DNA of 64,000 nt from the NCBI RefSeq assembly GCF_058153355.1, contig NZ_CM177019.1. One strand, 5' to 3'. Positions within the stretch are counted from its first letter, which is position 1, and every line of letters begins with the position of its first letter. The translations under genes were made by a program, and so were the position numbers. The notes under the pieces were generated by a model. That model was given only the letters and a program-made list of their open reading frames with translations. It searched no databases and was not told the origin of the DNA. Shown in pieces: positions 2,716 through 63,779 of this stretch.

Positions 2716-3782
2716 ACTCGTTGTCCTGTTTCACCATCAAAAAGATGCAGCTGATTTTCCGGCAGATGCAGCCACAGCGTGCTGCCTGTCGTCGGGCGCT
2801 CCTGATGCGCCAGTCGCACCACCAGCTTCTGTTCGCCCCAGCGTCCGTGCGCCAGGTTATCTGCGCCGAGGATCTCCAGCGTGTCCATCACCAGCGGTAT
2901 GCCGCCTTCTGCCTGCGAGCTTAACGCAATATGTTCCGGGCGAATGCCAAGAGTCATTTTACGCCCGGCATACTGACGGTAGCCACCGTTTAGCGGTAGC
3001 GCGATACCGCCATCCAGTTCGAAATGCGTGCCTTCGTTATTCACGCGGCCTGTCAGCAGGTTCATCGCCGGACTGCCGATAAAACTCGCCACAAACAGAG
3101 TGGCGGGCTTTTCGTAGACTTCAACTGGCGTGCCAATCTGTTCGGCAACGCCGCCGTTCATCACCATTACCCGCTGAGCGAGCGTCATCGCCTCAACCTG
3201 ATCGTGAGTAACGTAGAGTGAAGTCGTTTTCAGGCGACGGTGCAGTTGTTGCAGCTCAAGGCGCATCTGAACACGCAGCTTGGCATCGAGGTTAGAGAGC
3301 GGCTCATCAAACAGGAACACCGCCGGATCGCGCACAATCGCACGGCCCATCGCTACACGCTGACGCTGACCGCCAGAAAGCTCACGCGGACGACGCTTGA
3401 GCAGGCCATCCAGCTCCAGAATACGCGCCGCTTCTTTAACACGTTCGGCAATTTGTTGCTTGCCCATGCCGCGAATTTTCAGCCCCCACGCCATGTTTTC
3501 TTCGACACTCATATGCGGATAAAGAGCGTAGTTCTGGAACACCATCGCAATCCCGCGATCTTTCGGCTCCATTTCGGTCACGCGTTGGTCGTTAATCCAG
3601 ATATCGCCTTCGGTGACCCGCTCCAGCCCGGCAACCATGCGCAGCAGCGTGGATTTCCCGCAGCCAGACGGCCCGACCATCACGATAAATTCGCCATCCG
3701 CCACATCAAGGGTCAGCGGTTTAATGACCTGGGTTTTGCCATCCCAGCTTTTGGTTACTGCCTGTAATTTCAGTCCTGCCAT
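2712..3782 (-). CDS. ugpC: sn-glycerol-3-phosphate ABC transporter ATP-binding protein
   Basis: Walker [10 protein letters not shown], signature [14 protein letters not shown]; start set at MAGLKLQ (ATG 3780-3782), 356 aa, overlapping ugpE stop. Confidence 0.9.
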
Positions 3783-19910: not shown

Positions 19911-20270
19911 TTATTGTTTGCTGACAAAGCTGACAAAGCGCGTTCCTTTATAGCTCAGCGTACCTTTATCGCCCACTGTCAGGGCATGGTACTGCTGGGC
20001 GTCGAGGCGAAACGTCTGTTCCATTCCTCCGCTTTGCGGTTTGAAGCTCGCCTCATAGCGCATGCTGGTACCAGCCGGTGTCACTTCCTGCTGGCGCGAA
20101 CGGCGATCGTTAATCGGTTTTTCCCGCTTATTGCTCACCACCACCAACTTTTGCTGGAGTGGCGCTATATCATTATCAGCTTTTTCCCGTCGCTGTTGCA
20201 TAAAACGAAACGATGCGGCGACGATAATTAAGCCAATGATAACAATAAAGAAAAGAGGTGGTTTGCTCAT
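19911..20270 (-). CDS. yhhM: DUF2500 membrane-anchored protein
   Basis: 119-aa ORF with N-terminal TM helix. Confidence 0.75.
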   Translation of the reverse strand: MSKPPLFFIVIIGLIIVAASFRFMQQRREKADNDIAPLQQKLVVVSNKREKPINDRRSRQQEVTPAGTSMRYEASFKPQSGGMEQTFRLDAQQYHALTVGDKGTLSYKGTRFVSFVSKQ

Positions 20271-20410
20271 CTTTATCCCTCATCGGAAAATGCGGAAATA
20301 AGCATACCCTGCCAGTTATGGTGTTGTCATCCGTCCACCCTCGCCACTAAACTGGAAACAAGACCGTAGGCATTCCGCTTACGAAAAAATAACGAATTCA
20401 AGGAACTAAG

Positions 20411-21037
20411 ATGCTTTGGTCGTTTATCGCAGTCTGTCTTTCCGCATGGCTATCTGTGGATGCATCGTATCGTGGGCCAACCTGGCAACGCTGGGTGTTT
20501 AAACCGTTAACCCTTCTTCTCCTGCTGTTACTGGCATGGCAAGCGCCGATGTTCGACGCCATTAGTTATCTGGTGCTGGCAGGGCTGTGCGCTTCACTGC
20601 TGGGCGATGCGCTAACCCTGTTGCCACGTCAACGTCTGATGTACGCCATCGGCGCGTTTTTCCTCTCGCACCTGCTGTACACTATCTATTTCGCCAGTCA
20701 GATGACGCTCTCTTTCTTCTGGCCTCTGCCACTGGTGTTGCTGGTTCTGGGCGCGCTGTTACTGGCGATTATCTGGACGCGTCTGGAAGAGTATCGTTGG
20801 CCTATCTGCACGTTTATCGGCATGACGCTGGTGATGGTATGGCTGGCAGGTGAACTGTGGTTCTTCCGTCCGACCGCTCCGGCACTCTCTGCGTTTGTCG
20901 GCGCTTCGTTGCTGTTTATCAGTAACTTTGTCTGGCTGGGTAGTCACTATCGCCGACGCTTCCGTGCGGACAACGCGATTGCCGCCGCTTGTTATTTTGC
21001 CGGTCACTTCCTCATCGTCCGCTCGCTGTATCTCTGA
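20411..21037 (+). CDS. yhhN: YhhN-family inner membrane protein
   Basis: 208-aa polytopic membrane ORF. Confidence 0.8.
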
Positions 21038-21043
21038 TAAAAC

Positions 21044-21075
21044 TTGACTCTGGAGTCGACTCCAGAGTGTATCCT
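21044..21075 (+). promoter_or_regulatory. zntA promoter with ZntR (MerR-type) operator
   Basis: TTGACT (21044-21049), 20-bp spacer containing perfect dyad ACTCTGGAGTCGACTCCAGAGT (21047-21068), TATCCT (21070-21075); long spacer is typical of MerR-family promoters. Confidence 0.8.
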
Positions 21076-21109
21076 TCGGTTAATGAGAAAAACTTAACCG
21101 GAGGATGCC

Positions 21110-23308
21110 ATGTCGACTCCTGACAATCACGGCAAGAAAGCCCCTCAATTTGCCGCGTTCAAACCGCTACCCACGGTTCAGAACGCCAACGACTGTTGCT
21201 GCGACGGCGCATGTTCCAGCACGCCAACGCTCTCTGAAAACGTCTCCGGCACCCGCTATAGCTGGAAAGTCAGCGGCATGGACTGCGCCGCCTGCGCGCG
21301 CAAGGTAGAAAATGCCGTGCGCCAGCTTGCAGGCGTGAATCAGGTGCAGGTGTTGTTCGCCACCGAAAAACTGGTGGTGGATGCCGACAATGACATCCGT
21401 GCCCAGGTTGAATCTGCGGTGCAAAAAGCGGGCTATTCCCTGCGCGATGAACAGTCCGCCGACGAACAACAAGAATCACGCCTGAAAGAGAATCTGCCGC
21501 TGATTACGCTAATCGTGTTGATGGCAATTAGCTGGGGGCTAGAGCAGTTTAATCATCCGTTCGGGCAACTGGCGTTTATCGCGACCACGCTGGTTGGGCT
21601 GTACCCGATTGCTCGTCAGGCATTACGGCTGATCAAATCCGGCAGCTACTTCGCTATTGAAACCTTAATGAGCGTAGCCGCTATTGGTGCGCTGTTTATT
21701 GGCGCAACGGCTGAAGCTGCGATGGTGTTGCTGCTGTTTTTGATTGGTGAACGACTGGAAGGCTGGGCCGCCAGCCGCGCGCGTCAAGGGGTCAGCGCGT
21801 TAATGGCGCTGAAACCGGAAACCGCCACGCGCCTGCGTAATGGCAAGCGTGAAGAGGTAGCAATTAACAGCCTGCGTCCGGGCGATGTTATCGAAGTTGC
21901 GGCAGGTGGGCGTTTACCTGCCGACGGTAAACTGCTCTCGCCCTTTGCCAGTTTTGATGAAAGCGCCCTGACCGGCGAATCCATTCCGGTGGAGCGCGCG
22001 ACGGGTGATAAAGTTCCTGCAGGCGCCACCAGCGTAGACCGTCTGGTAACGCTGGAAGTGCTGTCAGAACCGGGTGCCAGCGCCATTGACCGGATTCTGA
22101 AACTGATCGAAGAAGCCGAAGAGCGCCGCGCGCCCATTGAGCGGTTTATCGACCGTTTCAGCCGTATTTACACGCCAGCGATTATGGCCGTCGCCCTGCT
22201 GGTGACGCTGGTGCCACCGCTGCTGTTTGCCGCAAGCTGGCAGGAGTGGATTTATAAAGGGCTGACGCTGCTGCTGATTGGCTGCCCGTGTGCGCTGGTG
22301 ATCTCAACACCTGCGGCGATCACCTCCGGGCTGGCGGCAGCAGCGCGTCATGGGGCGTTGATTAAAGGCGGTGCGGCGCTGGAACAACTAGGTCGTGTTA
22401 CCCAGGTGGCGTTTGATAAAACCGGCACGCTGACCGTCGGTAAACCGCGCGTTACCGCGATTCATCCGGCAACGGGTATTAGTGAATCTGAACTGCTGAC
22501 ACTGGCAGCGGCGGTCGAGCAAGGCGCGACGCATCCACTGGCGCAAGCCATCGTACGCGAAGCACAGGTTGCTGAACTCGCCATTCCCGCCGCCGAATCA
22601 CAGCGGGCGCTGGTCGGGTCTGGTATTGAAGCACTGATTAACGGTGAGCGCGTGTTGATATGCGCTGCCGGAAAACATCCGGCTGTTGCATTTGCTGGTT
22701 TAATTAACGAACTGGAAAGCGCCGGGCAAACGGTAGTACTGGTGGTGCGTAACGATGAAGTGCTGGGTGTCATTGCATTGCAGGATACCCTGCGCGCCGA
22801 CGCCGCAACTGCCATCAGCGAACTGAGCGCCCTGGGTGTCAAAGGGGTGATCCTCACTGGCGATAATCCACGCGCCGCGGCGGCAATTGCCGGGGAGTTG
22901 GGGCTGGAATTTAAAGCGGGCCTATTACCAGAAGATAAAGTCAAAGCGGTGACCGAGCTGAATCAACATGCGCCTCTGGCGATGGTCGGTGACGGTATTA
23001 ACGACGCGCCAGCGATGAAAGCCGCCACCATTGGGATTGCAATGGGCAGTGGCACAGATGTGGCGCTGGAAACCGCCGATGCAGCATTAACCCATAACCA
23101 CCTGCGCGGCCTGGCGCAGATGATTGAACTGGCACGCGCCACTCACGCCAACATCCGCCAGAACATCACCATTGCGCTGGGGCTGAAAGGGATCTTCCTC
23201 GTCACAACGCTGTTAGGGATGACCGGACTATGGCTGGCGGTGCTGGCAGATACGGGTGCGACGGTGCTGGTGACGGCGAATGCGTTAAGATTGTTGCGCA
23301 GGAAGTAA
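21110..23308 (+). CDS. zntA: Zn/Cd/Pb-exporting P1B-type ATPase
   Basis: 732-aa ORF with N-terminal GMDCAAC metal-binding motif, CPC, DKTGTLT phosphorylation site, GDGINDAP. Confidence 0.95.
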   Translation: MSTPDNHGKKAPQFAAFKPLPTVQNANDCCCDGACSSTPTLSENVSGTRYSWKVSGMDCAACARKVENAVRQLAGVNQVQVLFATEKLVVDADNDIRAQVESAVQKAGYSLRDEQSADEQQESRLKENLPLITLIVLMAISWGLEQFNHPFGQLAFIATTLVGLYPIARQALRLIKSGSYFAIETLMSVAAIGALFIGATAEAAMVLLLFLIGERLEGWAASRARQGVSALMALKPETATRLRNGKREEVAINSLRPGDVIEVAAGGRLPADGKLLSPFASFDESALTGESIPVERATGDKVPAGATSVDRLVTLEVLSEPGASAIDRILKLIEEAEERRAPIERFIDRFSRIYTPAIMAVALLVTLVPPLLFAASWQEWIYKGLTLLLIGCPCALVISTPAAITSGLAAAARHGALIKGGAALEQLGRVTQVAFDKTGTLTVGKPRVTAIHPATGISESELLTLAAAVEQGATHPLAQAIVREAQVAELAIPAAESQRALVGSGIEALINGERVLICAAGKHPAVAFAGLINELESAGQTVVLVVRNDEVLGVIALQDTLRADAATAISELSALGVKGVILTGDNPRAAAAIAGELGLEFKAGLLPEDKVKAVTELNQHAPLAMVGDGINDAPAMKAATIGIAMGSGTDVALETADAALTHNHLRGLAQMIELARATHANIRQNITIALGLKGIFLVTTLLGMTGLWLAVLADTGATVLVTANALRLLRRK

Positions 23309-23316
23309 AAGTGTTG

Positions 23317-23339
23317 CCTGATAGCCTCTGGCTATCAGG
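23317..23339. terminator. hairpin between convergent zntA and small ORF
   Basis: Perfect inverted repeat CCTGATAGCC-TCTG-GGCTATCAGG; no strong U-tract. Confidence 0.4.
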
Positions 23340-23340
23340 C

Positions 23341-23649
23341 TTAGTGCTGGGCCGGGAACGGCGGCATAGTCAGGAAAGCATAATAAAGCGCTAACATCAG
23401 AATGACGGAGATAACACAGCATCCAGCAACCAGGCGGGATGCTATGGATGGCCTTTTGAACATCAACCACAGGGCATAAGCAAGCCCGACACCGTTAAGT
23501 AAAGGTAAAAAAATCATTAGCCAGAGCCAACCCCAGGCAAGTACCCCCAGCCATCCCCCCACGACGATAAAAACAGGGATCAGCCAATTGGGGGTGAAGA
23601 TCGCGAGCAATCCCAGCAATGCCAGACAAACTGGAATTAAATAATCCAT
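23341..23649 (-). CDS. hypothetical small inner membrane protein
   Basis: 102-aa ORF with three predicted hydrophobic helices, convergent with zntA, directly beside the IS insertion; I do not recall a K-12 gene here. Confidence 0.35.
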   Translation of the reverse strand: MDYLIPVCLALLGLLAIFTPNWLIPVFIVVGGWLGVLAWGWLWLMIFLPLLNGVGLAYALWLMFKRPSIASRLVAGCCVISVILMLALYYAFLTMPPFPAQH

Positions 23650-23700
23650 TTGTGCATTCCATTACGTTTGCGTGCCGGATGCGGCGTAAACGCCTTATCT

Positions 23701-24926
<1,226 letters not shown>

Positions 24927-24956
24927 CATGCCTGCAATCTGGGAAACCGGGGTAGA

Positions 24957-24988
<32 letters not shown>

Positions 24989-25142
24989 AGGGCATTGAAC
25001 TCGTAGGCATGATAAGACGCGACAGCGTCGCATCAGGCATTGCGCACCGTATCGCCAGATGCAGCTTGAACGTTTTATCCGTCCTACAAACCGGTTGCAA
25101 GCCGCAAAATTGAGCGCGATCGGTCCGCTAGCCTGATTCACC

Positions 25143-25388
25143 TTACCCCGATTTGCGAATCAAATAACGATAAGGCAGTCCATCGGTCTCTTTCGCAACC
25201 AGTTCGTGTTCCATAAAGGTACAAAACCCAGGAATATCGCGTGTCGTCGCCGGATCGTCAGCAATAATCAGCAACGTTTCACCTGGCTGCATATTGCGCA
25301 CAGTTTTGCGCACCATCATTACTGGTTCCGGGCAGCGCAGGCCAAGTGCGTCGAGTGTGTGGTCAGGGCTGGAAAAGAGATCGGTCAT
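25143..25388 (-). CDS. tusA: sulfur carrier protein TusA
   Basis: 81-aa ORF with CPxP motif (LRCPEPVMM). Confidence 0.9.
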
Positions 25389-25608
25389 TTTCTTCTCATC
25401 ACATAAAAAAACGGCGCTAGTTTACGCCCTGTGAGTCCGTAAGCAAACCAGGTTAACGATTGCGTGAAAATTAACCATTGCATTGTCAACGTAAAGCAGT
25501 ATCATGCGGCGGCTCGAAAAAAGGGTCAGCACGTTATTATGTTAAGGTAACAGACGTGTCGTACGTATTGGGTTCCCTCACCCCAATGGTTAATCAAAAA
25601 GGTACAAT

Positions 25609-26274
25609 ATGAACGTTTTCTCGCAAACTCAACGCTATAAGGCGTTGTTCTGGTTATCGTTATTTCATCTGTTGGTGATCACCTCCAGTAACTATCTGGT
25701 TCAGCTTCCCGTATCCATTTTTGGTTTCCATACCACCTGGGGCGCGTTTAGCTTTCCGTTTATTTTCCTTGCTACCGACCTGACTGTGCGTATTTTTGGC
25801 GCACCGCTGGCCCGTCGTATCATCTTTGCGGTGATGATCCCGGCGTTACTGATCTCCTACGTCATCTCGTCGCTGTTCTATATGGGTTCCTGGCAGGGAT
25901 TCGGCGCGCTCGCCCACTTCAATCTGTTTGTCGCCCGTATCGCCACCGCCAGTTTCATGGCCTACGCGCTGGGGCAAATCCTCGACGTGCACGTTTTTAA
26001 CCGCCTGCGTCAGAGTCGTCGCTGGTGGCTGGCACCGACGGCTTCCACCCTGTTTGGTAACGTCAGCGACACGCTGGCCTTCTTCTTCATTGCCTTCTGG
26101 CGCAGCCCAGATGCCTTTATGGCTGAACACTGGATGGAAATCGCGCTGGTCGATTACTGTTTCAAAGTGTTAATCAGTATCGTTTTCTTCCTGCCAATGT
26201 ATGGCGTATTACTCAATATGCTGTTGAAAAGACTGGCAGATAAATCCGAAATCAACGCTTTGCAGGCGAGTTAA
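25609..26274 (+). CDS. yhhQ: queuosine precursor transporter
   Basis: 221-aa polytopic membrane ORF. Confidence 0.85.
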   Translation: MNVFSQTQRYKALFWLSLFHLLVITSSNYLVQLPVSIFGFHTTWGAFSFPFIFLATDLTVRIFGAPLARRIIFAVMIPALLISYVISSLFYMGSWQGFGALAHFNLFVARIATASFMAYALGQILDVHVFNRLRQSRRWWLAPTASTLFGNVSDTLAFFFIAFWRSPDAFMAEHWMEIALVDYCFKVLISIVFFLPMYGVLLNMLLKRLADKSEINALQAS

Positions 26275-26346
26275 AGGTTCGTTATCAGAGTTGTGATAAG
26301 ATGGATGAATGAGCCGTTATGGCCGTTTATCGAAAGGAAGAAGTCA

Positions 26347-26904
26347 ATGCGCAATCTGGTTAAATATGTCGGAATTGGCCTGCTGGTTATGGGGCTTGCG
26401 GCCTGTGATGATAAAGACACTAACGCTACGGCGCAGGGTTCGGTCGCGGAAAGTAACGCTACCGGGAATCCCGTCAACCTGCTTGATGGCAAGTTAAGTT
26501 TCTCGCTGCCAGCGGATATGACCGACCAGAGCGGTAAGCTGGGAACGCAGGCTAATAACATGCATGTCTGGTCCGACGCCACCGGGCAAAAAGCAGTCAT
26601 CGTCATCATGGGCGATGATCCGAAAGAAGATCTGGCGGTGCTGGCGAAGCGCCTGGAAGATCAGCAACGTAGCCGCGATCCGCAGCTGCAAGTGGTAACC
26701 AATAAAGCCATTGAGCTGAAAGGTCACAAAATGCAGCAGTTAGACAGCATTATCTCCGCGAAAGGCCAGACGGCGTACTCTTCCGTTATTCTGGGTAACG
26801 TGGGTAATCAACTGCTGACCATGCAAATTACGCTGCCAGCTGACGATCAGCAAAAAGCACAGACCACCGCAGAAAACATCATTAATACGCTGGTTATTCA
26901 GTAA
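26347..26904 (+). CDS. dcrB: periplasmic lipoprotein DcrB
   Basis: Start set at [20 protein letters not shown] (lipobox LAAC), 185 aa. Confidence 0.85.
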
Positions 26905-26907
26905 GTT

Positions 26908-28125
26908 TTAAGATGATGAGATGGCCTCAGGTACTTCCACCGGAGGCCGTTTTTTTAATCGCCACGTCAGTAATAACGCGATTGCGACCAGTCCCGCCGC
27001 CGCCAGATAAATCACCGGGACGCCCGCCCAACTCATCACCAGCCCAGCCAGTGGTCCGGTCACGCCAAGCGATAAATCCATAAATACGGTGTAAGTTGCC
27101 AGCGCCGCCCCCTGATTCTGCTGCGGCACTGCTTTTACCGCCACTACGCCCAATGCCGGGAACACCAGCGAAAACCCCGCCCCCGCGAGTAAGACGCCAA
27201 TTTTCGCCATCCACGGCATAGTCGCCACGCCAACCAGTAGCAGGCCGATTATCTCAACGCTAAAGCAGAGCATCGCCACATTTAAGCCGCCGATACGGTT
27301 AATGCCGTTAGGAAATAACAAACGCGTACCGACAAACGCACAGCTAAACAGCGTCAACGCGAAAGCCGCACCGTCCCAACCTTTAGCGTCATAAAACAGC
27401 GTGATAAAAGTGGCGATAACGCCAAATCCGGCGGAAGCCAGTGCCAGCGCCATGCCGTACAGCCAGACGCGCCCAAGCACCGCGCGAAACGGCAGCGGTT
27501 TGCCTTTACTGGCTTTTACCGTCGGACGCGGGATCGCCAACAAAATGGCCACCAGCGCCACGCCCATAATGATTAACGCTAACGCCTGCAAGCCGCCCCA
27601 GTGATAAAACACGACACCTAACGGCGCACCCATCGCCATCGCCCCGTAAGTGACAATGCCGTTCCACGAAATCACCCGCCCGATATGCAGCGAACCCACC
27701 ACGCCAACGCCCCATAGGGTCGATCCCGTTCCGGCAAAACTTTGCCCAATCCCAAGGATCACGCGCCCCAGGCACAGTAATAACAGGCTGATGACGGGCA
27801 GACTGGCGGTTAATCCTGCCGTCAGATACCCCAAACCGCTCAAAAAGCAGCCGCATAAACCGAAGACGACAATCTTTTTAGGTCCCAGCAAATCGGCGTA
27901 ACGTCCGGCATGAGGGCGGCTCAGCAAGGTGGCGAAATATTGCAGGCTGATAACCAATCCTGCCCAGAAAGCGCTAAAGCCCATCACATCATGGACATAG
28001 CCCGGTAATACAGCGAGCGGCAACCCGATGGTGAGGTAGCTGGCGAAGTTAAACATGACAATGGAGACAATGCGCAAATTCAGGCGCAATCCGTTTAGCG
28101 CGGGTTCGGCTACGGGTTCGGGCAT
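26908..28125 (-). CDS. yhhS: MFS transporter
   Basis: Start set at MPEPVAEPALNG (ATG 28123-28125), 405 aa, 12-TM profile. Confidence 0.85.
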   Translation of the reverse strand: MPEPVAEPALNGLRLNLRIVSIVMFNFASYLTIGLPLAVLPGYVHDVMGFSAFWAGLVISLQYFATLLSRPHAGRYADLLGPKKIVVFGLCGCFLSGLGYLTAGLTASLPVISLLLLCLGRVILGIGQSFAGTGSTLWGVGVVGSLHIGRVISWNGIVTYGAMAMGAPLGVVFYHWGGLQALALIIMGVALVAILLAIPRPTVKASKGKPLPFRAVLGRVWLYGMALALASAGFGVIATFITLFYDAKGWDGAAFALTLFSCAFVGTRLLFPNGINRIGGLNVAMLCFSVEIIGLLLVGVATMPWMAKIGVLLAGAGFSLVFPALGVVAVKAVPQQNQGAALATYTVFMDLSLGVTGPLAGLVMSWAGVPVIYLAAAGLVAIALLLTWRLKKRPPVEVPEAISSS

Positions 28126-53915: not shown

Positions 53916-53921
53916 AGGCTT

Positions 53922-53955
53922 GAGCGGTATGCGGGGAAACTCGCACGTACCGTTC
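53922..53955 (+). ncRNA. group II intron domain V (catalytic hairpin)
   Basis: GAGCGGTATGCGGGGAAACTCGCACGTACCGTTC: 34-nt hairpin with AGC catalytic triad and conserved bulge, 7 nt after the IEP stop. Confidence 0.8.
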
Positions 53956-54209
53956 TTAGGGGGCGGCGAGACAGTAATGAATCGCTGCTACCCGACTCTG
54001 CGTACGCAATCAAAATCCCCAGCCAATACAACATTTAACACCATCATATTTTCCATCATTAGTGTGATCAGCTGGTTATTTTCTGTTGTAATAGTGTATT
54101 AATCTATTCACCGCATCAATATTAAGAATCTCTGACAGATGTAAACTTTTTCGCGCGTTATCCCTTACGCGTTCATACTTTTCAGGATGGTATTGGAAGG
54201 TTAATAAAT

Positions 54210-55727: not shown

Positions 55728-56480
55728 TCACACCGGCGTACCTGCATAAATATCAAAGCGATGCCCTTTGGTGACAACCGCGTTTGGCGTGGCGACATTC
55801 GCCAGCGGCGGCGCGTAGTCCGGGCGCTTTACCACCACGCGTTTGGTCGCCAGCAAGCGTGCAGGCTCCAGCAACCCATCAGCGTCGAGATCCGGCCCCA
55901 CCAGCGACTGGAACACGCGCATCTCTTTTTTTACCAGCGCGCTTTTCTGCTTATGCGGGAACATCGGGTCGAGATAGACCACCTGCGGGCGGGGGGTAAT
56001 ATCAGTCAGCGCCGTCAGGCTGGAGGCGTGGATTAACTGTAAACGCTCCTGCAACCAGCCGCCGATTTCCGCATCCGCATAACCACGCGCCAGGCCGTCG
56101 TCAAGCAGCGCGGCAACGACTGGATTACGCTCCAGCATCCGCACACGACAGCCGACCGAAGCCAGCACAAAGGCATCGCGCCCCAGTCCTGCGGTAGCGT
56201 CCACCACGTCCGGGAGATAATCGCCTTTAATGCCCACCGCTTTCGCCACCGCCTCACCGCGTCCACCGCCAAATTTGCGACGGTGCGCCATCGTTCCGCC
56301 AACAAAATCAACAAAGATGCCGCCAAGTTTTGGCTCATCGCGCTTACGCAATTCAAGATGCTCCGGCGTTAACACCAGCGCCATCAGGTTGTCTTCATCA
56401 TGTTCCAGCCCCCAGCGAGCCGCCAGAACAGATAAGGCACCGTCTCCGGTGCCTGTTTCATCAATTAAGCAGATTTTCAC
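55728..56480 (-). CDS. rsmJ: 16S rRNA m2G1516 methyltransferase
   Basis: Start set at GTG 56478-56480 ([14 protein letters not shown]), 250 aa, 7 nt after prlC stop. Confidence 0.8.
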
Positions 56481-56487
56481 TGAATGA

Positions 56488-58530
56488 TCAGCCCTTAATG
56501 CCGTAGTGCTCCAGCATCGCATCCAGTTGCGGTTCACGACCACGGAAGCGTTTGAACAGATCCATCGGCTCTTCTGAACCACCACGGCTCAGAATGTTGT
56601 CGAGGAACGACTGTCCGGTTTCACGGTTGAAAATGCCCTCTTCCTCAAAACGCGAGAAGGCATCTGCCGCCAGCACATCAGCCCACAGGTAGCTGTAGTA
56701 ACCTGCCGCATAACCACCAGCAAAGATGTGGCTAAATGCATGTGGGAAGCGGCCCCAGGACGGAGACGGTACCACGGCAACCAGTTTCTTGATTTCTGCC
56801 AGAGTTTCGAGGATTTTCGCCCCCTGATCCGGACGGAATTCTGCATGTAGACGGAAATCGAACAGGCCGAACTCCAGCTGACGCAGAATAAACAGCGCCG
56901 CCTGGTAGTTCTTCGCCGCCAGCATTTTATCCAACAGTTCTTTCGGCAGCGGTTCGCCAGTCTCATAGTGACCGGAGATAAACGCCAGCGCCTCCGGCTC
57001 CCAGCACCAGTTTTCCATAAACTGGCTCGGCAGTTCGACCGCATCCCACGGTACCCCGCTGATCCCGGATACACCGGCGGTTTCAATGCGGGTCAGCATA
57101 TGATGCAGACCATGACCGAACTCGTGGAACAGCGTGATTACTTCGTCATGCGTAAACAGCGCCGGTTTACCATTCACCGGGCGGTTGAAGTTACAGGTCA
57201 GATACGCGACCGGTTTTTGCAGCGAACCGTCGGCTTTACGCATCTGGCCTACGCAGTCATCCATCCACGCCCCGCCGCGCTTGTTTTCACGGGCATACAG
57301 GTCGAGGTAGAAGCTGCCGCGCAGTTCGTTGTTCTCGTCATACAGTTCGAAGAAACGGACATCCGGATGCCAGACATCAACATCTTTGCGCTCTTTGGCT
57401 GTGATGCCGTAAATACGTTTCACCACTTCAAACAAGCCGTTAACCGCTTTGTTTTCCGGGAAGTACGGACGCAGTTGTTCGTCGCTGATGCTGTAGAGGT
57501 GCTGTTTTTGTTTTTCGCTGTAGTACGCAATATCCCACGGCTGCAACTCATCGACGTCAAATTCGGCTTTGGCGAAGGCGCGCAGTTGCGCCAGCTCTTT
57601 TTCGCCCTGCGGACGTGCGCGTTTTGCCAGATCGGTTAAGAAATCAAGCACCTGCTGCGGGTTCTCCGCCATTTTGGTAGCCAGAGATTTAAAGGCGTAG
57701 TTTTCAAAGCCCAGCAGTTGCGCCAGTTCGTGACGCAGAGCGAGGATCTCTTCCATCACCTTGCTATTGTCCCACTTACCGGCGTTCGGGCCTTGATCGG
57801 AAGCGCGGGTGCTGTAAGCGCGATACATCTCTTCACGCAAGGCCTGGTTGTCGCAGTAGGTCATTACCGGCAAATAGCTTGGGATATCCAGCGTCAGCAA
57901 GTAGCCTTCCAGTTCTTTCGCTTCGGCCTGGGCTTTTGCCGCCGCCAGCGCGCTTTCTGGCATACCCGCCAGTTCCGCTTCGTCGGTAACGAGTTTGGTC
58001 CAGCCCATCGTCGCATCAAGGACGTTGTTGCTGTACTGGTTGCCCAGTTCGGAAAGACGGGTAGCAATTTCGCCGTAGCGTTGCTGTTTCTCTTTCGGCA
58101 GACCGATGCCAGAGAGTTCAAAATCACGCAGGGCGTTATCAACCGCTTTCTTCTGCGCCGTATTCAGCGTGGCGTAATGATCGCCATCGCGCAGATCGCG
58201 GTACGCTTTATACAGCCCTTCATGTTGCCCTACCCAGGTGCTGTATTCCGACAGCAGTGGCAGGGTTTGTTCGTAGGCTTCACGCAGTTCCGGGCTATTT
58301 TTCACCGAGTTCAGGTGGCTGACCGGGGAGAAGATACGCCCCAACACATCGTCCACTTCCGCCAGCGGCTGGCAGAGATTTTCCCAGGTGTACGGTGCCC
58401 CTTGCGCTACTACGCGCTCCACATTTTCACGGCAGTCATTCAATGCCTTCGTCACGGCTGGAACCACATGTTCCGGGAGAATTTTAGAAAACGGAGGCAA
58501 TTCAAAGGGAGTCAGTAACGGATTCGTCAT
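56488..58530 (-). CDS. prlC: oligopeptidase A (M3 family)
   Basis: Start set at [14 protein letters not shown] (ATG 58528-58530), 680 aa, HEFGH zinc motif. Confidence 0.9.
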
Positions 58531-58732
58531 TAGCGCAGTCCTGGTTAAAGAGGTTAAGGAAGCGCTCAACAGGCGCTTTACATAATGTGTGTAGCATGGG
58601 GTTAAGTGTAGTGAATTTCAATGAGAAACGTTACGCTTTCGCGGCAACGGCCTCTTTTCGGTATACTGTCCTGATAGGCTTTTGTGCGCCCCGAATACGG
58701 GCCGATTTTTACTTACCGGAACACCTTTACCC

Positions 58733-59575
58733 ATGCTCAGTTATCGCCACAGCTTTCACGCTGGCAACCACGCCGACGTTCTTAAACATACCGTTCAGAG
58801 CCTGATCATCGAGTCACTGAAAGAGAAAGATAAACCGTTTCTCTATCTGGATACCCACGCGGGTGCGGGGCGTTATCAGTTAGGCAGTGAACATGCCGAG
58901 CGTACCGGCGAATATCTCGAAGGTATCGCCCGTATCTGGCAGCAGGACGATCTGCCTGCGGAGCTGGAACCGTACATCAGCGTGGTGGAACATTTTAACC
59001 GTAGCGGGCAGTTACGTTACTACCCAGGTTCGCCGTTGATTGCTCGCCAGCTACTGCGCGAGCAGGACAGTCTGCAACTGACCGAGCTGCACCCGAGCGA
59101 TTTCCCGTTGCTGCGTGCTGAATTTCAGAAAGACAGCCGTGCGCGCGTGGAAAAAGCCGACGGTTTCCAGCAGCTTAAAGCCAAGCTGCCGCCGGTTTCT
59201 CGCCGTGGTTTAATCCTTATCGACCCGCCGTATGAAATGAAAACCGACTATCAGGCGGTGGTCAGCGGCATTAACGAGGGGTATAAACGTTTTGCCACAG
59301 GCGTCTACGCGCTGTGGTATCCAGTGGTGCTGCGTCAGCAAATCAAGCGCATGATCCACGATCTGGAAGCGACCGGTATTCGCAAGATTATGCAAATTGA
59401 ACTGGCGGTATTGCCAGACAGCGATCGCCGTGGCATGACCGCTTCCGGCATGATTGTGATTAACCCGCCGTGGAAGCTGGAACAGCAGATGAATAACGTG
59501 TTGCCGTGGTTGCATAGCAAACTGGTTCCGGCTGGCACCGGGCATGCCACCGTAAGCTGGATCGTGCCAGAGTAA
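58733..59575 (+). CDS. rlmJ: 23S rRNA m6A2030 methyltransferase
   Basis: Start set at MLSYRHSFHAGNHADVLKH (ATG 58733), 280 aa, DPPY motif (LIDPPYE). Confidence 0.85.
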   Translation: MLSYRHSFHAGNHADVLKHTVQSLIIESLKEKDKPFLYLDTHAGAGRYQLGSEHAERTGEYLEGIARIWQQDDLPAELEPYISVVEHFNRSGQLRYYPGSPLIARQLLREQDSLQLTELHPSDFPLLRAEFQKDSRARVEKADGFQQLKAKLPPVSRRGLILIDPPYEMKTDYQAVVSGINEGYKRFATGVYALWYPVVLRQQIKRMIHDLEATGIRKIMQIELAVLPDSDRRGMTASGMIVINPPWKLEQQMNNVLPWLHSKLVPAGTGHATVSWIVPE

Positions 59576-59646
59576 TTGCAGCCATTGCTGGCACCTATTA
59601 CGTCTCGCGCTACAATCGCGGTAATCAACGATAAGGACAATATGTC

Positions 59647-60999
59647 ATGACTAAACACTATGATTACATCGCCATCGGCGGCGGCAGCGGCGGTATCGCC
59701 TCCATCAACCGCGCGGCTATGTACGGTCAGAAATGCGCGCTGATTGAAGCCAAAGAACTGGGCGGCACCTGCGTGAATGTTGGCTGCGTGCCGAAAAAAG
59801 TGATGTGGCACGCGGCGCAAATCCGTGAAGCGATCCACATGTACGGCCCGGATTATGGTTTCGATACCACCATCAATAAGTTCAACTGGGAAACGTTGAT
59901 CGCCAGCCGTACCGCCTATATCGACCGTATTCATACCTCCTATGAAAACGTGCTCAGTAAAAATAACGTTGATGTAATCAAAGGCTTTGCCCGCTTCGTT
60001 GATGCCAAAACCATTGAAGTAAACGGCGAAACCATCACGGCCGATCATATCCTGATCGCCACCGGCGGTCGCCCGAGCCACCCGGATATTCCGGGCGTGG
60101 AATACGGTATTGATTCCGATGGCTTCTTCGCCCTTCCTGCTTTGCCAGAGCGTGTAGCGGTTGTTGGCGCGGGTTACATCGCCGTTGAACTGGCGGGTGT
60201 GATTAACGGCCTCGGCGCAAAGACGCATCTGTTTGTTCGTAAACATGCGCCGCTGCGCAGCTTCGACCCGATGATCTCTGAAACGCTGGTCGAAGTGATG
60301 AACGCCGAAGGTCCGCAGTTGCACACCAACGCCATCCCGAAAGCGGTCGTGAAAAATGCTGATGGCAGCCTGACGCTGGAGCTGGAAGATGGTCGCAGTG
60401 AAACGGTGGATTGCCTGATTTGGGCGATTGGTCGTGAGCCTGCCAATGACAACATTAACCTCGAAGCCGCTGGCGTAAAAACCAACGAAAAAGGCTATAT
60501 CGTCGTCGATAAATATCAAAATACCAGCGTTGAAGGTATTTACGCGGTGGGCGATAACACGGGCGCAGTGGAACTGACACCGGTGGCAGTTGCAGCAGGC
60601 CGCCGCCTCTCTGAACGCCTGTTTAATAACAAGCCGGATGAGCATCTGGATTACAGCAATATTCCGACCGTGGTCTTCAGCCATCCGCCGATTGGGACTG
60701 TTGGTTTAACGGAACCGCAGGCGCGCGAGCAATACGGCGACGATCAGGTGAAAGTGTATAAATCCTCTTTCACCGCGATGTATACCGCCGTCACCACTCA
60801 CCGCCAGCCGTGCCGCATGAAGCTGGTGTGCGTTGGACCGGAAGAGAAGATTGTCGGTATTCATGGCATTGGCTTTGGTATGGATGAAATGTTGCAGGGC
60901 TTCGCGGTGGCGCTGAAGATGGGCGCAACCAAAAAAGACTTCGACAATACCGTCGCCATTCACCCAACGGCGGCAGAAGAGTTCGTTACCATGCGTTAA
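59647..60999 (+). CDS. gor: glutathione reductase
   Basis: 450-aa ORF, FAD fold GGGSGG and redox-active [13 protein letters not shown]. Confidence 0.95.
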
Positions 61000-61005
61000 A
61001 TGTTA

Positions 61006-61036
61006 AAGGGCAAAGAGTGGTGTGCTCTTTGCCCTT
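61006..61036. terminator. bidirectional terminator shared by convergent gor and dinQ
   Basis: AAGGGCAAAGAG-TGGTGTG-CTCTTTGCCCTT hairpin 7 nt after gor stop. Confidence 0.6.
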
Positions 61037-61052
61037 AGTTACGTTTCCGCTA

Positions 61053-61169
61053 TCAGTTCAGAAGCTGAAGCAAGAAGCGGATCAGTTCCAGCAGCGCAAT
61101 TAACGCCCCAAGAACGATGATTGCTTTATCAATCACCCGTTTTCTCCATGCGATGGAGTGAGAATGCAT
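61053..61169 (-). CDS. dinQ: DinQ type I toxin peptide (27-aa form from GTG 61136; longest frame 38 aa from ATG 61169)
   Basis: Minus-strand frame MHSHSIAWRKR-VIDKAIIVLGALIALLELIRFLLQLLN; single hydrophobic helix; LexA box upstream. Confidence 0.6.
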   Translation of the reverse strand: MHSHSIAWRKRVIDKAIIVLGALIALLELIRFLLQLLN

Positions 61170-61204
61170 CCGCTTACTCATCCACTGCCTGTCACGGCGC
61201 ATGC

Positions 61205-61290
61205 CTCATTGTTAGATGTGGGCAATCTCACTCCGGCCAGAGCATCAGTTAACGGCACCACCCGTACCACTGATCAGGTCTTTGAAAGCG
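61205..61290 (+). ncRNA. agrA-like antisense sRNA repeat unit (bounds approximate)
   Basis: Unit GTTAGATGTGGGCAATCTCACTCCGGCCAGAGC at 61211-61243; near-repeat of unit at 61410-61442 and related to the dinQ 5' region. Confidence 0.4.
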
Positions 61291-61329
61291 TTTATGCGCA
61301 TTACCAGAGTGAAAATGCCTCAGAGCTAA

Positions 61330-61345
61330 CTGGATAATCATACAG
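61330..61345. promoter_or_regulatory. LexA box (SOS operator) in dinQ promoter
   Basis: CTGGATAATCATACAG matches CTGT-N8-ACAG consensus at 15 of 16 positions. Confidence 0.65.
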
Positions 61346-61399
61346 TGTAATTAGGCTAAATAACCAGCATAACCTTGCAATGTCTCTTTTAAGGTAATA

Positions 61400-61491
61400 G
61401 CATGGAAAAGTTAGATGTGGGCATTCTCACTCCAGCCAGAGCCACCAACTCAGGCCTGGAAAGTAAAAGACCGACGTAAGTCGGTTTTTTT
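61400..61491 (+). ncRNA. agrB-like antisense sRNA with intrinsic terminator (bounds approximate)
   Basis: Unit GTTAGATGTGGGCATTCTCACTCCAGCCAGAGC at 61410-61442, then hairpin GACCGACGTAAGTCGGT plus TTTTTTT (61469-61491) on plus strand. Confidence 0.45.
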
Positions 61492-61643
61492 ACATCCGGA
61501 TTCAGACCTCCTTTCAAATGAATACCCAACTCAAAATTCACACCTATTACCTTCCTCTGCACTTACACATTCGTTAAAACATATATGTTTTTGACTTATC
61601 CGCTTCGAAGAGAGACACTACCTGCAACAATCAGGAGCGCAAT

Positions 61644-61997
61644 ATGTCATTTCTGTTACCCATCCAATTGTTCAAAATTCTTGCCGATGAAACCCGTCTG
61701 GGCATCGTTTTACTGCTCAGCGAACTGGGAGAGTTATGCGTCTGCGATCTCTGCACTGCCCTCGATCAGTCGCAGCCCAAGATCTCCCGCCATCTGGCAT
61801 TACTGCGTGAAAGTGGGCTATTGCTGGACCGCAAGCAAGGAAAGTGGGTTCATTACCGTTTATCGCCGCATATTCCAACATGGGCGGCGAAAATTATTGA
61901 GCAGGCCTGGCGATGCGAACAGGTAAAGGTTCAGGTGATTGTCCGTAACCTCGCCAGACAAAATTGTTCCGCAGACAGTAAGAATATTTGTAGTTAA
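61644..61997 (+). CDS. arsR: arsenical resistance operon repressor (ArsR/SmtB family)
   Basis: 117-aa ORF with ELCVCDLC metal-binding motif in wHTH. Confidence 0.9.
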   Translation: MSFLLPIQLFKILADETRLGIVLLLSELGELCVCDLCTALDQSQPKISRHLALLRESGLLLDRKQGKWVHYRLSPHIPTWAAKIIEQAWRCEQVKVQVIVRNLARQNCSADSKNICS

Positions 61998-62051
61998 AAA
62001 ATTTATCTAAACACATATGAATATTCGAATGTGTTTTATCCAGGAGGCATG

Positions 62052-63341
62052 ATGTTACTGGCGGGCGCTATCTTTGTCCTGACCATCGTATTGGTTATCT
62101 GGCAGCCGAAAGGTTTAGGTATCGGCTGGAGTGCTACGCTCGGTGCGGTACTGGCATTAATGACGGGCGTGGTCCATCCGGGCGATATTCCGGTGGTGTG
62201 GAATATCGTCTGGAACGCGACGGCTGCGTTTATAGCCGTCATTATCATCAGCTTGCTGCTGGATGAGTCCGGCTTTTTTGAATGGGCGGCGCTGCACGTC
62301 TCACGCTGGGGCAATGGGCGCGGTCGCTTGCTGTTTACCTGGATTGTCCTGCTCGGTGCTACCGTTGCGGCCCTGTTTGCCAATGATGGCGCGGCGCTTA
62401 TTTTGACGCCGATTGTCATCGCCATGCTGCTGGCTTTAGGGTTCAGCAAAGGCACTACGCTGGCGTTTGTTATGGCGGCCGGATTCATTGCCGATACCGC
62501 CAGTCTGCCGCTTATTGTCTCTAACCTGGTGAATATCGTTTCCGCAGATTTCTTTGGCCTCGGCTTTCGCGAATACGCATCGGTGATGGTGCCGGTGGAT
62601 ATCGCTGCAATACTGGCTACCCTGGTGATGTTGCATCTCTATTTCCGCAAAGATATTCCGCAGAACTACGATATGGCGCTGCTGAAATCTCCCGCAGAAG
62701 CGATTAAAGATCCTGCCACCTTCAAAACTGGCTGGGTTGTTTTACTGTTTCTGCTGGTGGGATTTTTCGTCCTGGAACCGCTCGGCATTCCGGTAAGCGC
62801 CATTGCGGCAGTGGGCGCGCTGATATTATTTGCCGTCGCTAAACGCGGTCATGCAATTAATACGGGTAAAGTGCTGCGCGGTGCGCCCTGGCAGATTGTC
62901 ATCTTCTCGCTCGGCATGTATCTGGTGGTTTATGGCCTGCGCAATGCCGGGCTAACGGAATATCTTTCTGGCGTACTCAACGTACTGGCGGAAAACGGCC
63001 TGTGGGCCGCGACGCTCGGCACCGGATTCCTCACCGCCTTCCTCTCTTCTATTATGAACAATATGCCGACGGTACTGGTTGGCGCGTTGTCCATTGATGG
63101 CAGCACGGCATCTGGTGTCATCAAAGAAGCGATGGTTTATGCCAACGTGATTGGCTGCGATTTGGGACCGAAAATTACCCCAATTGGTAGCCTGGCAACG
63201 CTGCTCTGGCTGCACGTACTTTCGCAGAAGAATATGACTATCAGCTGGGGATATTACTTCCGTACAGGGATTATCATGACCCTGCCGGTGCTGTTTGTGA
63301 CGCTCGCCGCGCTGGCGCTTCGTCTCTCTTTCACATCGTAA
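62052..63341 (+). CDS. arsB: arsenite efflux pump
   Basis: Start set at [21 protein letters not shown] (ATG 62052), 429 aa membrane protein. Confidence 0.9.
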
Positions 63342-63353
63342 TGAGATACTGAT

Positions 63354-63779
63354 ATGAGCAACATTACTATTTATCACAACCCGGCCTGCGGCACGTCGCG
63401 TAATACGCTGGAGATGATTCGCAACAGCGGTACAGAACCGACCATTATCTATTATCTGGAAACACCGCCCACACGCGATGAGCTGGTCAAACTCATTGCC
63501 GATATGGGGATTTACGTACGCGCGCTGTTGCGTAAAAACGTCGAGCCGTATGAGGAACTGGGCCTTGCAGAAGATAAATTTACTGACGATCGGTTAATCG
63601 ACTTTATGCTTCAGCACCCGATTCTGATTAATCGCCCGATTGTGGTGACGCCGCTGGGAACTCGCCTGTGCCGCCCTTCAGAAGTGGTGCTGGAAATTCT
63701 GCCAGATGCGCAACAAGGCGCGTTCACCAAGGAAGATGGCGAGAAAGTGGTTGATGAAGCGGGTAAACGGTTGAAATAA
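63354..63779 (+). CDS. arsC: arsenate reductase (glutaredoxin-coupled)
   Basis: 141-aa ORF MSNITIYHNPACGTSRNTLEMIR with catalytic Cys12 context. Confidence 0.9.
   Translation: MSNITIYHNPACGTSRNTLEMIRNSGTEPTIIYYLETPPTRDELVKLIADMGIYVRALLRKNVEPYEELGLAEDKFTDDRLIDFMLQHPILINRPIVVTPLGTRLCRPSEVVLEILPDAQQGAFTKEDGEKVVDEAGKRLK

Follow-up and report, generated by a model that had tools for sequence, protein, structure and literature searches.

Which element occupies the interval between gor and arsR in the 64,000-nucleotide stretch of DNA analyzed here (the window), and is it still complete? A preliminary description of this DNA had proposed a dinQ/agrAB-type type I toxin-antitoxin locus between the two genes, with sRNAs in the plural. 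Synteny, the RefSeq annotation of DinQ, NCBIfam and Rfam all agreed with such a locus, and an sRNA of the AgrB family was found; the part of the proposal that did not stand is the pair of sRNA genes, as the window has one and K-12 has two. On these grounds we identify the locus between gor and arsR (61001-61493) as the dinQ-agr type I toxin-antitoxin module of E. coli, very probably in an apparently intact form with one antitoxin gene as compared to the usual two. The dinQ-agrB module is already known and characterized as an SOS-regulated type I toxin-antitoxin system and is annotated by RefSeq, Rfam and NCBIfam. Its confirmation as such matters little; the block covariation and the cognate switching described below provide a modest lead.

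The genes were found in the order gor (plus), dinQ (minus), agr (plus) and arsR (plus), with dinQ convergent with gor and divergent from agr. The K-12 annotation has the same order, gor, dinQ (minus), agrA (plus), agrB (plus) and arsR, where dinQ, agrA and agrB are b4613, b4712 and b4713, respectively (Weel-Sneve et al. 2013, PMC3567139; Kristiansen et al. 2016, PMC5066626). The genes of the locus in the window and its flanks were:

59647-60999, plus strand: gor, flanking gene
61053-61136, minus strand: dinQ coding sequence (ORF V), GTG start at 61136-61134, 27 aa plus stop, single-transmembrane peptide
61411-61493, plus strand: the sole Agr antisense sRNA, AgrB family (Rfam RF02891)
61644-61997, plus strand: arsR, flanking gene and start of arsR-arsB-arsC

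Using the intergenic region as a 711-bp query, a match was obtained in 5,422 of 5,426 complete E. coli genomes, and the small ORF is named 'damage-inducible type I toxin DinQ' by RefSeq. The exact haplotype of the window was present in none of the 5,426 genomes, the best match being 95.2% identical. An identical intergenic region was found in one Logan assembly, SRR31441161 (L029), and two other contigs with an identical Gor protein carried two agr genes. The segment 56000-64000 shared 90-95% identity with most E. coli and 97.8% with strain WL297, and none of the Escherichia species representatives was more than 95% identical to it. Positions 20000-28000 were 95-99% identical to 5,439 E. coli records, which ruled out a non-coli Escherichia species as the origin of the window. 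Since these positions reached 95-99% but the prlC-gor-ars segment only 90-95% to most strains, the window is, judged by these identities, E. coli with a divergent haplotype limited to the prlC-gor-ars segment. From a separate genome scan, 15 of 25 loci (14 non-enterobacterial ones and L009) were taken as chance matches to a 17-base pattern.

The small minus-strand ORF for a hydrophobic peptide, previously proposed to start at a GTG or at an ATG giving 38 aa, was present as given and corresponds to DinQ. From the GTG it translates as VIDKAIIVLGALIALLELIRFLLQLLN. An in-frame ATG at 61169-61167 yields the 38-aa version, and the longest ORF starting with ATG comprises 49 aa and reaches up to 61202. 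The 27-aa peptide was identical to DINQ_ECOLI and matched the NCBIfam equivalog model NF041472 (toxin_DinQ) with 54 bits (cutoff 30). Pfam gave no match for the 27-aa and 49-aa peptides at E<=0.01, and for the 27-aa peptide none at E<=10. In K-12, DinQ is a toxic inner-membrane peptide of 27 aa that is translated from the +44 processed form of the mRNA (PMC3567139). The peptide was unchanged in 24 of 27 tabulated loci and was annotated under the same protein accession in 8 further loci. The three loci that differed were those of WL297, EC958 and MOD1-EC7003. In EC958 (ST131) the leader unit is fused to an agr body, the dinQ promoter and the LexA box are lost and DinQ carries the exchange L15Q. 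Escherichia sp. MOD1-EC7003 has a different sequence in place of the 5' UTR, together with a diverged peptide.

Upstream of the peptide ORF a LexA-box-like sequence had been noted at 61330-61345. The sequence CTGGATAATCATACAG is located there, and its core equals the K-12 operator. The elements placed around the dinQ start were:

61330-61345, minus strand: LexA operator core, CTGTATGATTATCCAG in minus-strand reading, 16/16 to the K-12 operator, overlapping the dinQ -10
61342-61337, minus strand: dinQ -10 hexamer TATGAT, inside the LexA box, placed by homology
61001-61330, minus strand: putative full-length dinQ transcript of ~330 nt, +1 set at 61330 by homology to the K-12 numbering

The 16-nt core was conserved in 25 of the 27 tabulated loci (22 exact, 3 with one substitution). 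When the operator is taken as a 20-mer, a flanking base differs from K-12 (C for T). The K-12 dinQ operator has an HI of 4.83 and dinQ is LexA-controlled; the primary transcript of ~330 nt is untranslated (PMC3567139). In the window, the LexA operator overlapping the predicted dinQ promoter would place dinQ under SOS control as well. In a consensus promoter scan both the dinQ and the agr promoter fell below the threshold, and their positions rest on homology to the mapped K-12 elements and on hexamers that stay invariant from one haplotype to the next. The 64 nt from the LexA box to the start of agr belong to another haplotype than in K-12, so that the weak second LexA operator of K-12 (HI 13.82) may be unconserved in the window.

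Translation of the K-12 mRNA depends on four elements of the 5' UTR, namely element 1 (U16-C28), element 2 (G94-G106), element 3 (U167-U178) and element 4 (A182-G187), the last including the SD (G184-G187). In the +1 RNA the pairings 1:2 and 3:4 hold the SD closed, in the +44 RNA the pairing 2:3 opens it, and AgrB bound to G88-A119 re-closes hairpin 3:4 (PMC5066626). With +1 set at 61330, all four published elements were found in the window at homologous positions with the expected sequence:

61315-61303, minus strand: switch element 1, UUUUCACUCUGGU, partner of element 2 in the +1 mRNA, missing from the +44 form
61237-61225, minus strand: switch element 2, within the Agr target site
61164-61153, minus strand: switch element 3, the anti-SD, UUCUCACUCCAU, mapped from the K-12 numbering (PMC5066626)
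61149-61144, minus strand: switch element 4, AUGGAG, with the SD GGAG at 61147-61144, pairs with element 3

The SD hairpin (61144-61164, minus strand) was identical in sequence to that of K-12. Element 1 differs in C28, which is a U in the window and gives a G.U wobble. In the predicted fold of the +1 RNA, duplex 1:2 (17-28 with 94-105) was part of the MFE structure with P=1.00, and hairpin 3:4 reached P=0.88. For the +44 RNA of the window, duplex 2:3 was predicted with P 1.00, a value to be read beside the K-12 control, which gave only P 0.03 despite SHAPE support. In the +44 MFE structure of the window the SD is paired with CUCU at 89-92, and with the K-12 control failing to form the SHAPE-supported 2:3 the predicted folds give no proof that the SD opens. 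Blocking of mRNA positions 88-119 brought hairpin 3:4 back, with a predicted P of 0.94. By these fold predictions the four elements of the window could form 1:2, 2:3 and 3:4 as mutually exclusive pairings.

The antisense part of the locus consists of a repeat. The preliminary description had reported two near-identical units of about 33 nt on the plus strand with a single mismatch across a 15-nt core, a hairpin with U-tract terminator after the second unit (61469-61491), and a division of roles in which the upstream unit serves as target within the leader of the toxin mRNA and the downstream one supplies the 5' end of a trans antisense sRNA. Each of these points was borne out. The units at 61211-61243 and 61410-61442 were identical in 31 of 33 positions, and their cores, GGGCAATCTCACTCC and GGGCATTCTCACTCC, differ by one mismatch. 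Allowing up to 3 mismatches, these were the only two copies of the unit in the whole 64-kb window, where 0.00 were expected (100 shuffles). In each unit a 9-nt variable block is framed by two conserved stretches, GTTAGAT before it and CTCACTCC(R)GCCAGAGC after it. The division of roles is in agreement with the AgrB match and with the K-12 site G88-A119. The corresponding features were:

61211-61243, minus strand: Agr target site in the dinQ 5' UTR (mRNA G88-A119, at 61243-61212), first unit of the repeat and published AgrB binding region
61218-61226, minus strand: 9-nt variable block of the leader, GTGGGCAAT on the plus strand, inside the Agr target site
61375-61403, plus strand: agr promoter, -35 TTGCAA at 61375-61380, 17-nt spacer, -10 TAGCAT at 61398-61403
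61470-61485, plus strand: stem of the Agr terminator ACCGAC-GTAA-GTCGGT, with the U run to 61491, stem of the Rfam match and of the RNA fold

The sRNA matched the AgrB model RF02891 over its full length (1-84 of 84) with 95.7 bits, compared to a gathering score of 40 and to 108 bits for K-12 AgrB, and this was the only match in the 64 kb. It comprises a single-stranded 5' antisense unit (61410-61442), an internal stem-loop and the rho-independent terminator, and the whole sRNA folds with -29.8 kcal/mol (z-score -4.19). A simple terminator scan called the Agr hairpin on the minus strand only. The -35 and -10 hexamers of agr were invariant in the alignments A1-A3, and the surrounding 64 nt fall into two haplotypes with 38-40 of 64 positions identical.

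The duplex between Agr and the leader was predicted at -59.1 kcal/mol in the window, compared to -58.2 kcal/mol for K-12 AgrB and -42.7 kcal/mol for K-12 AgrA. In K-12, AgrB counteracts dinQ and AgrA does not, and they match the leader in 30 of 31 and 25 of 31 positions, respectively (PMC3567139). The window shares with K-12 the orthologous position between gor and arsR, DinQ, the LexA core, the SD hairpin, elements 1-4, an AgrB-family sRNA with 5' antisense unit and terminator, and a conserved A.C mismatch in the Agr-dinQ duplex. Unlike K-12, it has, besides the changed base in element 1, one extra U.U mismatch inside the 9-nt block, and its blocks are GTGGGCAAT in the leader and GTGGGCATT in Agr, where K-12 has AAGAACTCT in both.

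Mapping the steps worked out experimentally in K-12 (PMC3567139, PMC5066626) onto the window by sequence, the following course of regulation may be proposed. LexA bound at 61330-61345 would repress the dinQ promoter, and upon DNA damage the minus-strand transcript of ~330 nt would be made. In its +1 form this RNA would stay untranslated, with 1:2 paired and the anti-SD/SD hairpin (3:4) directly in front of the GTG. Once the first 44 nt are removed, element 2 would be free to pair with element 3, the SD would open and the 27-aa inner-membrane DinQ would be produced. The 5' 33 nt of a constitutive Agr sRNA would pair with mRNA positions 88-119, element 2 included; as a consequence, the SD hairpin would close again and the duplex would be exposed to RNase III.

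The main difference to most strains is the number of agr genes. Compared with K-12, GF60, WL297 and L031, a unit of ~235 bp is absent from the window. Of 5,426 complete E. coli genomes, 3,842 contained the spacer between agrA and agrB, so ~71% of them would carry two agr genes. According to T1TAdb, which selects the most stable interactor, agrA occurs only 'in some bacterial strains'. Loci with a single agr were also found in 30EVA2, SCPM, PS10-3, HM50, E2863 and ATCC 11775, as well as in E. albertii, Escherichia sp. E1V33, Citrobacter and Serratia oryzae. Those of 30EVA2, E2863, ATCC 11775, PS10-3, E. albertii and E1V33 are arranged like the window (gor, dinQ, one agr, ars), and their Agr matches its own leader. 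However, they carry the A-type blocks AATGGCATT, GATGGCTAT and GATGACTAT, and in the window the B-type GTGGGCATT follows an A-position promoter.

The closest relatives of the single segments of the window agr were:

agr promoter: agrA-position promoter of GF60 (64/64)
33-nt antisense unit: B-position copy of WL297 and APEC O2-211 (33/33)
sRNA body: A or B type not distinguishable; three private substitutions
downstream flank: B-type

Read segment by segment, the window agr is chimeric: its promoter is that of an agrA position, and both its antisense unit and its downstream flank are of the agrB type; K-12 lacks this combination of a GF60-type promoter and agrB-type unit in one sole gene. The deletion gap was placed differently by MAFFT across alignments, and the segment identities reveal a mosaic with no unique breakpoint. 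Such shifting placement is expected of a repeat-mediated event.

The rare leader allele of the window, GTGGGCAAT, occurs in only 11 of 5,426 genomes, and all three genomes with this leader that were examined have two agr genes. There, the B-position block GTGGGCATT is the strong partner of the leader (-59.1 kcal/mol) and the A-position block GATGGCTAT the weak one (-49.1 kcal/mol). It is exactly GTGGGCATT that is kept in the window. A deletion of one unit by way of the repeats, with the cognate antisense unit retained, is the simplest and most likely reading; in terms of events, one ~235-bp tandem unit would most likely have been lost through recombination between the agr repeats. Alternatively, the single agr may be the ancestral state, with the change having run in the reverse direction. 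Considered together with EC958, the deletion suggests that the three direct repeats drive deletions which streamline the module, as they would have done in the window, or kill it, as in EC958.

This raises the possibility that the window itself carries a decaying relic, in which one agr was lost and the remaining pair has an extra mismatch, neither regulation nor expression of the module follows the K-12 pattern any more, and the module is heading for loss. Among the alternatives it is the one that survives best, and we nevertheless regard it as improbable. Repeat-mediated deletions do destroy the locus in other lineages (EC958), but in the window the peptide equals that of K-12, the LexA core is preserved in 16/16 positions and elements 1-4, the agr hexamers and the terminator are all intact. 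The replaced 5' UTR and diverged peptide of MOD1-EC7003 likewise document decay, and the haplotype of the window is absent from 5,426 complete genomes; against this, the kept agr is the cognate one, its predicted duplex is as stable as that of K-12 AgrB and dinQ, and loci that combine a single agr with matched blocks are frequent and widely spread over the phylogeny. We therefore prefer to describe the module as a rare, chimeric single-agr allele that looks fully functional.

A cognate pairing of leader and Agr was not restricted to the window. In 31 Escherichia loci as well as in Citrobacter and Serratia, each leader had a strongly matching neighboring Agr, and the 9-nt block varied by lineage. 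For 23 Escherichia loci (18 distinct haplotypes) the best neighboring Agr gave -51 to -66 kcal/mol with a mean of -58.0 kcal/mol, and the other copy of the two-agr loci averaged -46.4 kcal/mol. When the agr sets were shuffled among the 18 haplotypes, none of 5,000 shuffles reached the observed mean in this test, which ignores shared ancestry. Citrobacter youngae, Serratia oryzae and two tandem dinQ-like loci of C. amalonaticus shared the block in 9/9 positions between the leader and their own Agr. Their own-pair duplexes ranged from -56 to -64 kcal/mol, and most cross-pairs of different block alleles from -25 to -47 kcal/mol. This covariation of the leader and Agr blocks represents strong comparative support for the antisense interaction.

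Which of the two agr positions holds the best partner depended on the leader block:

AAGAACTCT (K-12): position B, 1,678/5,426 genomes
GTGGGCATT: position B, up to 283/5,426 genomes
GTGGGCAAT (window): position B, the sole copy in the window, 11/5,426 genomes
AATGGCATT: position A, 1,918/5,426 genomes
GACGACTAT: position A, 418/5,426 genomes
AATGGTATT (O157:H7): position A, 308/5,426 genomes

Leaders that fit best with the agrA position (AATGGCATT, GACGACTAT and AATGGTATT) thus amounted to 2,644 of 5,426 genomes and those that fit best with the agrB position to about 1,970, where the population counts are marginal ones and the joint leader/agr genotypes come from 32 genomes. This distribution suggests that agrA, regarded as a degenerate copy on the basis of K-12, is not one in general, and the K-12 conclusion that 'agrA is non-functional' should be applied to other strains with caution. 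We lean slightly towards reading the 9-nt block as a lineage-specific specificity code that is kept matched to one agr, with the second copy as an alternative antitoxin allele. Gene conversion, selection or the two together may maintain the matching; a literature search on gene conversion or cognate switching at dinQ/agr found no relevant paper. If the specificity code is real, about half of E. coli would rely on 'agrA' as their functional antitoxin, and the deletion of a unit would be tolerated only when the cognate block is kept, of which the chimeric agr of the window would be the remainder. In sequence, the match between antitoxin and toxin lies in a short, fast-changing block from Escherichia to Serratia, and the tandem sRNA gene that provides it varies by E. 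coli lineage. The blocks also offer a natural allelic series for tests of antisense specificity.

The same covariation bears on another interpretation, according to which the actual genes are plus-strand ORFs over the dinQ leader and agr, with the repeat arising from a coding duplication. One example is the following:

61158-61337, plus strand: ORF of 59 aa, homologues annotated as 'hypothetical protein' in several RefSeq genomes

RefSeq contains 'hypothetical protein' coding sequences of 57, 71 and 112 aa in some strains, and an automated gene caller also predicts such ORFs in L029-L031. However, their length, frame and presence vary between strains, no Pfam family is on record for them, and they overlap experimentally mapped RNAs. 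The antisense pairing, with leader and Agr covarying across genera, accounts fully for the repeat, whose second unit lies in a structured, terminator-bearing RNA-family match, and we hold a coding origin to be very improbable. Equally improbable is a second, degenerate agr-like sRNA gene starting with the upstream unit at 61211-61243: it is a same-strand direct repeat of the agr 5' unit, but no AgrB-family match was found over it even at E<=1, the sequences diverge immediately past the unit (ATCAGTTAACGG vs CACCAACTCAGG) with no terminator after it, it is without a TTGCAA/TAGCAT-type promoter upstream, and it coincides with the published AgrB target G88-A119 in the dinQ 5' UTR.

Beyond E. coli, the antisense-controlled dinQ module resembles the dql (dinQ-like) genes of Enterobacteriaceae (Kristiansen et al. 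2016), seen here in Citrobacter and Serratia, in the 5' UTR switch elements, the SD hairpin and the block-matched AgrB-family sRNA. The dql genes differ in their peptides, block alleles and genomic contexts. The NCBIfam model DqlB gave 14.9 bits with the window peptide, and according to these comparisons the gene of the window is a true dinQ and not a dql. With tisB-istR1 the module has in common the LexA control, an inactive primary transcript that needs 5' processing, a small inner-membrane toxin and an antisense sRNA, encoded divergently and outside the toxin gene, that targets the 5' UTR (PMC3567139). The sequences and the peptide of tisB-istR1 are unrelated to dinQ-agr. IstR-1 blocks a ribosome standby site, without an anti-SD hairpin switch.

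Finally, a structure was found between the stop codons of gor and dinQ:

61006-61036, unstranded: GC-rich inverted repeat with 12-nt arms (100% complementary), terminator-like site on the plus strand in the scan

This inverted repeat is likely a bidirectional terminator shared by gor (plus strand) and dinQ (minus strand).

The unit positions in the comparison loci (L001-L053) were measured from the SD hairpin formed by elements 3 and 4 of the dinQ 5' UTR and lay at +68, +267 and approximately +500. Across the E. coli lineages represented in these loci, the best match to the dinQ leader unit alternated between the tandem agr copies. The leader alleles AATGGCATT, GACGACTAT and AATGGTATT were matched by the agr copy at the A position, and the alleles AAGAACTCT and GTGGGCAWT by the copy at the B position. 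In E. whittamii the leader was matched equally by both copies.

With the leader query GTGGGCATT a total of 451 match places were obtained in 283 E. coli genomes, 168 of which contained a second place. This suggests that the additional places are agr copies in which the A of the otherwise conserved A.C mismatch is replaced by G. Such a substitution would render them fully complementary to the leader.

A tandem arrangement was present in Citrobacter amalonaticus:

Locus L014, 7078-7836: tandem array of two dinQ-like genes and three genes for AgrB-family sRNAs

Here, one Agr copy fitted the leader block GTTGAGAGT and another the block AAAGTTTGC. The third was a poor match to both and in this respect resembles K-12 agrA. 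In the distant loci the differences between leader and Agr were mostly C-to-U changes within the core CUCACUCC, which result in G.U wobbles in the leader-Agr pairing.

Altered loci were found in two further Escherichia strains. In the ST131 strain E. coli EC958 (locus L035) the agr body was joined directly to the dinQ leader unit (699-942, with an Rfam AgrB match at 858-942), and neither the promoter of dinQ nor its LexA box nor element 1 was left. All three were taken out by a deletion between the leader and agr repeats. In addition, DinQ carried the exchange L15Q and the locus lacked arsR and arsB. The EC958 locus is a dead relic of the dinQ-agr locus. In Escherichia sp. MOD1-EC7003 (locus L024) a DinQ-like peptide, GIVKAIIIPGVLIVLLKLIRFLLQLLN, was encoded at approximately position 3708, and the 5' UTR was replaced by other sequence directly after element 3. 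No AgrB-family gene was found near this peptide.

Two haplotypes that have diverged deeply from each other exist for the 64 nt from the LexA box to the agr start (window 61346-61409). Strain GF60 was identical to the window at 64/64 positions, and K-12, WL297 and APEC O2-211 shared only 38-40 of the 64 positions with them. The -35 and -10 hexamers of agr within this stretch were invariant across both haplotypes. The weak second LexA operator of K-12 may be located in the same stretch and may not have been conserved.

At the other end of agr lies the terminator:

Window 61461-61491: Agr terminator hairpin, preceded by an A-rich run and followed by a U run

The consensus scan called this hairpin on the minus strand only. 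It may act bidirectionally and, if so, could also halt antisense read-through from the arsR side.

In the region of the dinQ 5' UTR and the agr genes, RefSeq and automated gene callers have inconsistently placed plus-strand CDSs of 57, 71 and 112 aa, annotated as 'hypothetical protein'. The ORF/CDS sites were:

Window 61158-61337, plus strand
Locus L032, 5165-5338
Locus L034, 661-876
Locus L045, 5295-5633

These are probably spurious calls in non-coding RNA sequence.

The segment prlC-gor-dinQ-ars (56000-64000) showed 90-95% identity to 5,362 E. coli records and 95-99% to 60; for another 8 kb of the window (20000-28000), 5,439 records fell into the range of 95-99%. The segment is a locally divergent haplotype, probably of recombinant origin. 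A group II intron of approximately 2.3 kb precedes the dinQ locus in the window at a distance of about 7 kb:

51690-51837, plus strand: group II intron domain group-II-D1D4-7 (Rfam, 112.5 bits)
53920-53996, plus strand: group II intron domain Intron_gpII (Rfam, 65.5 bits)
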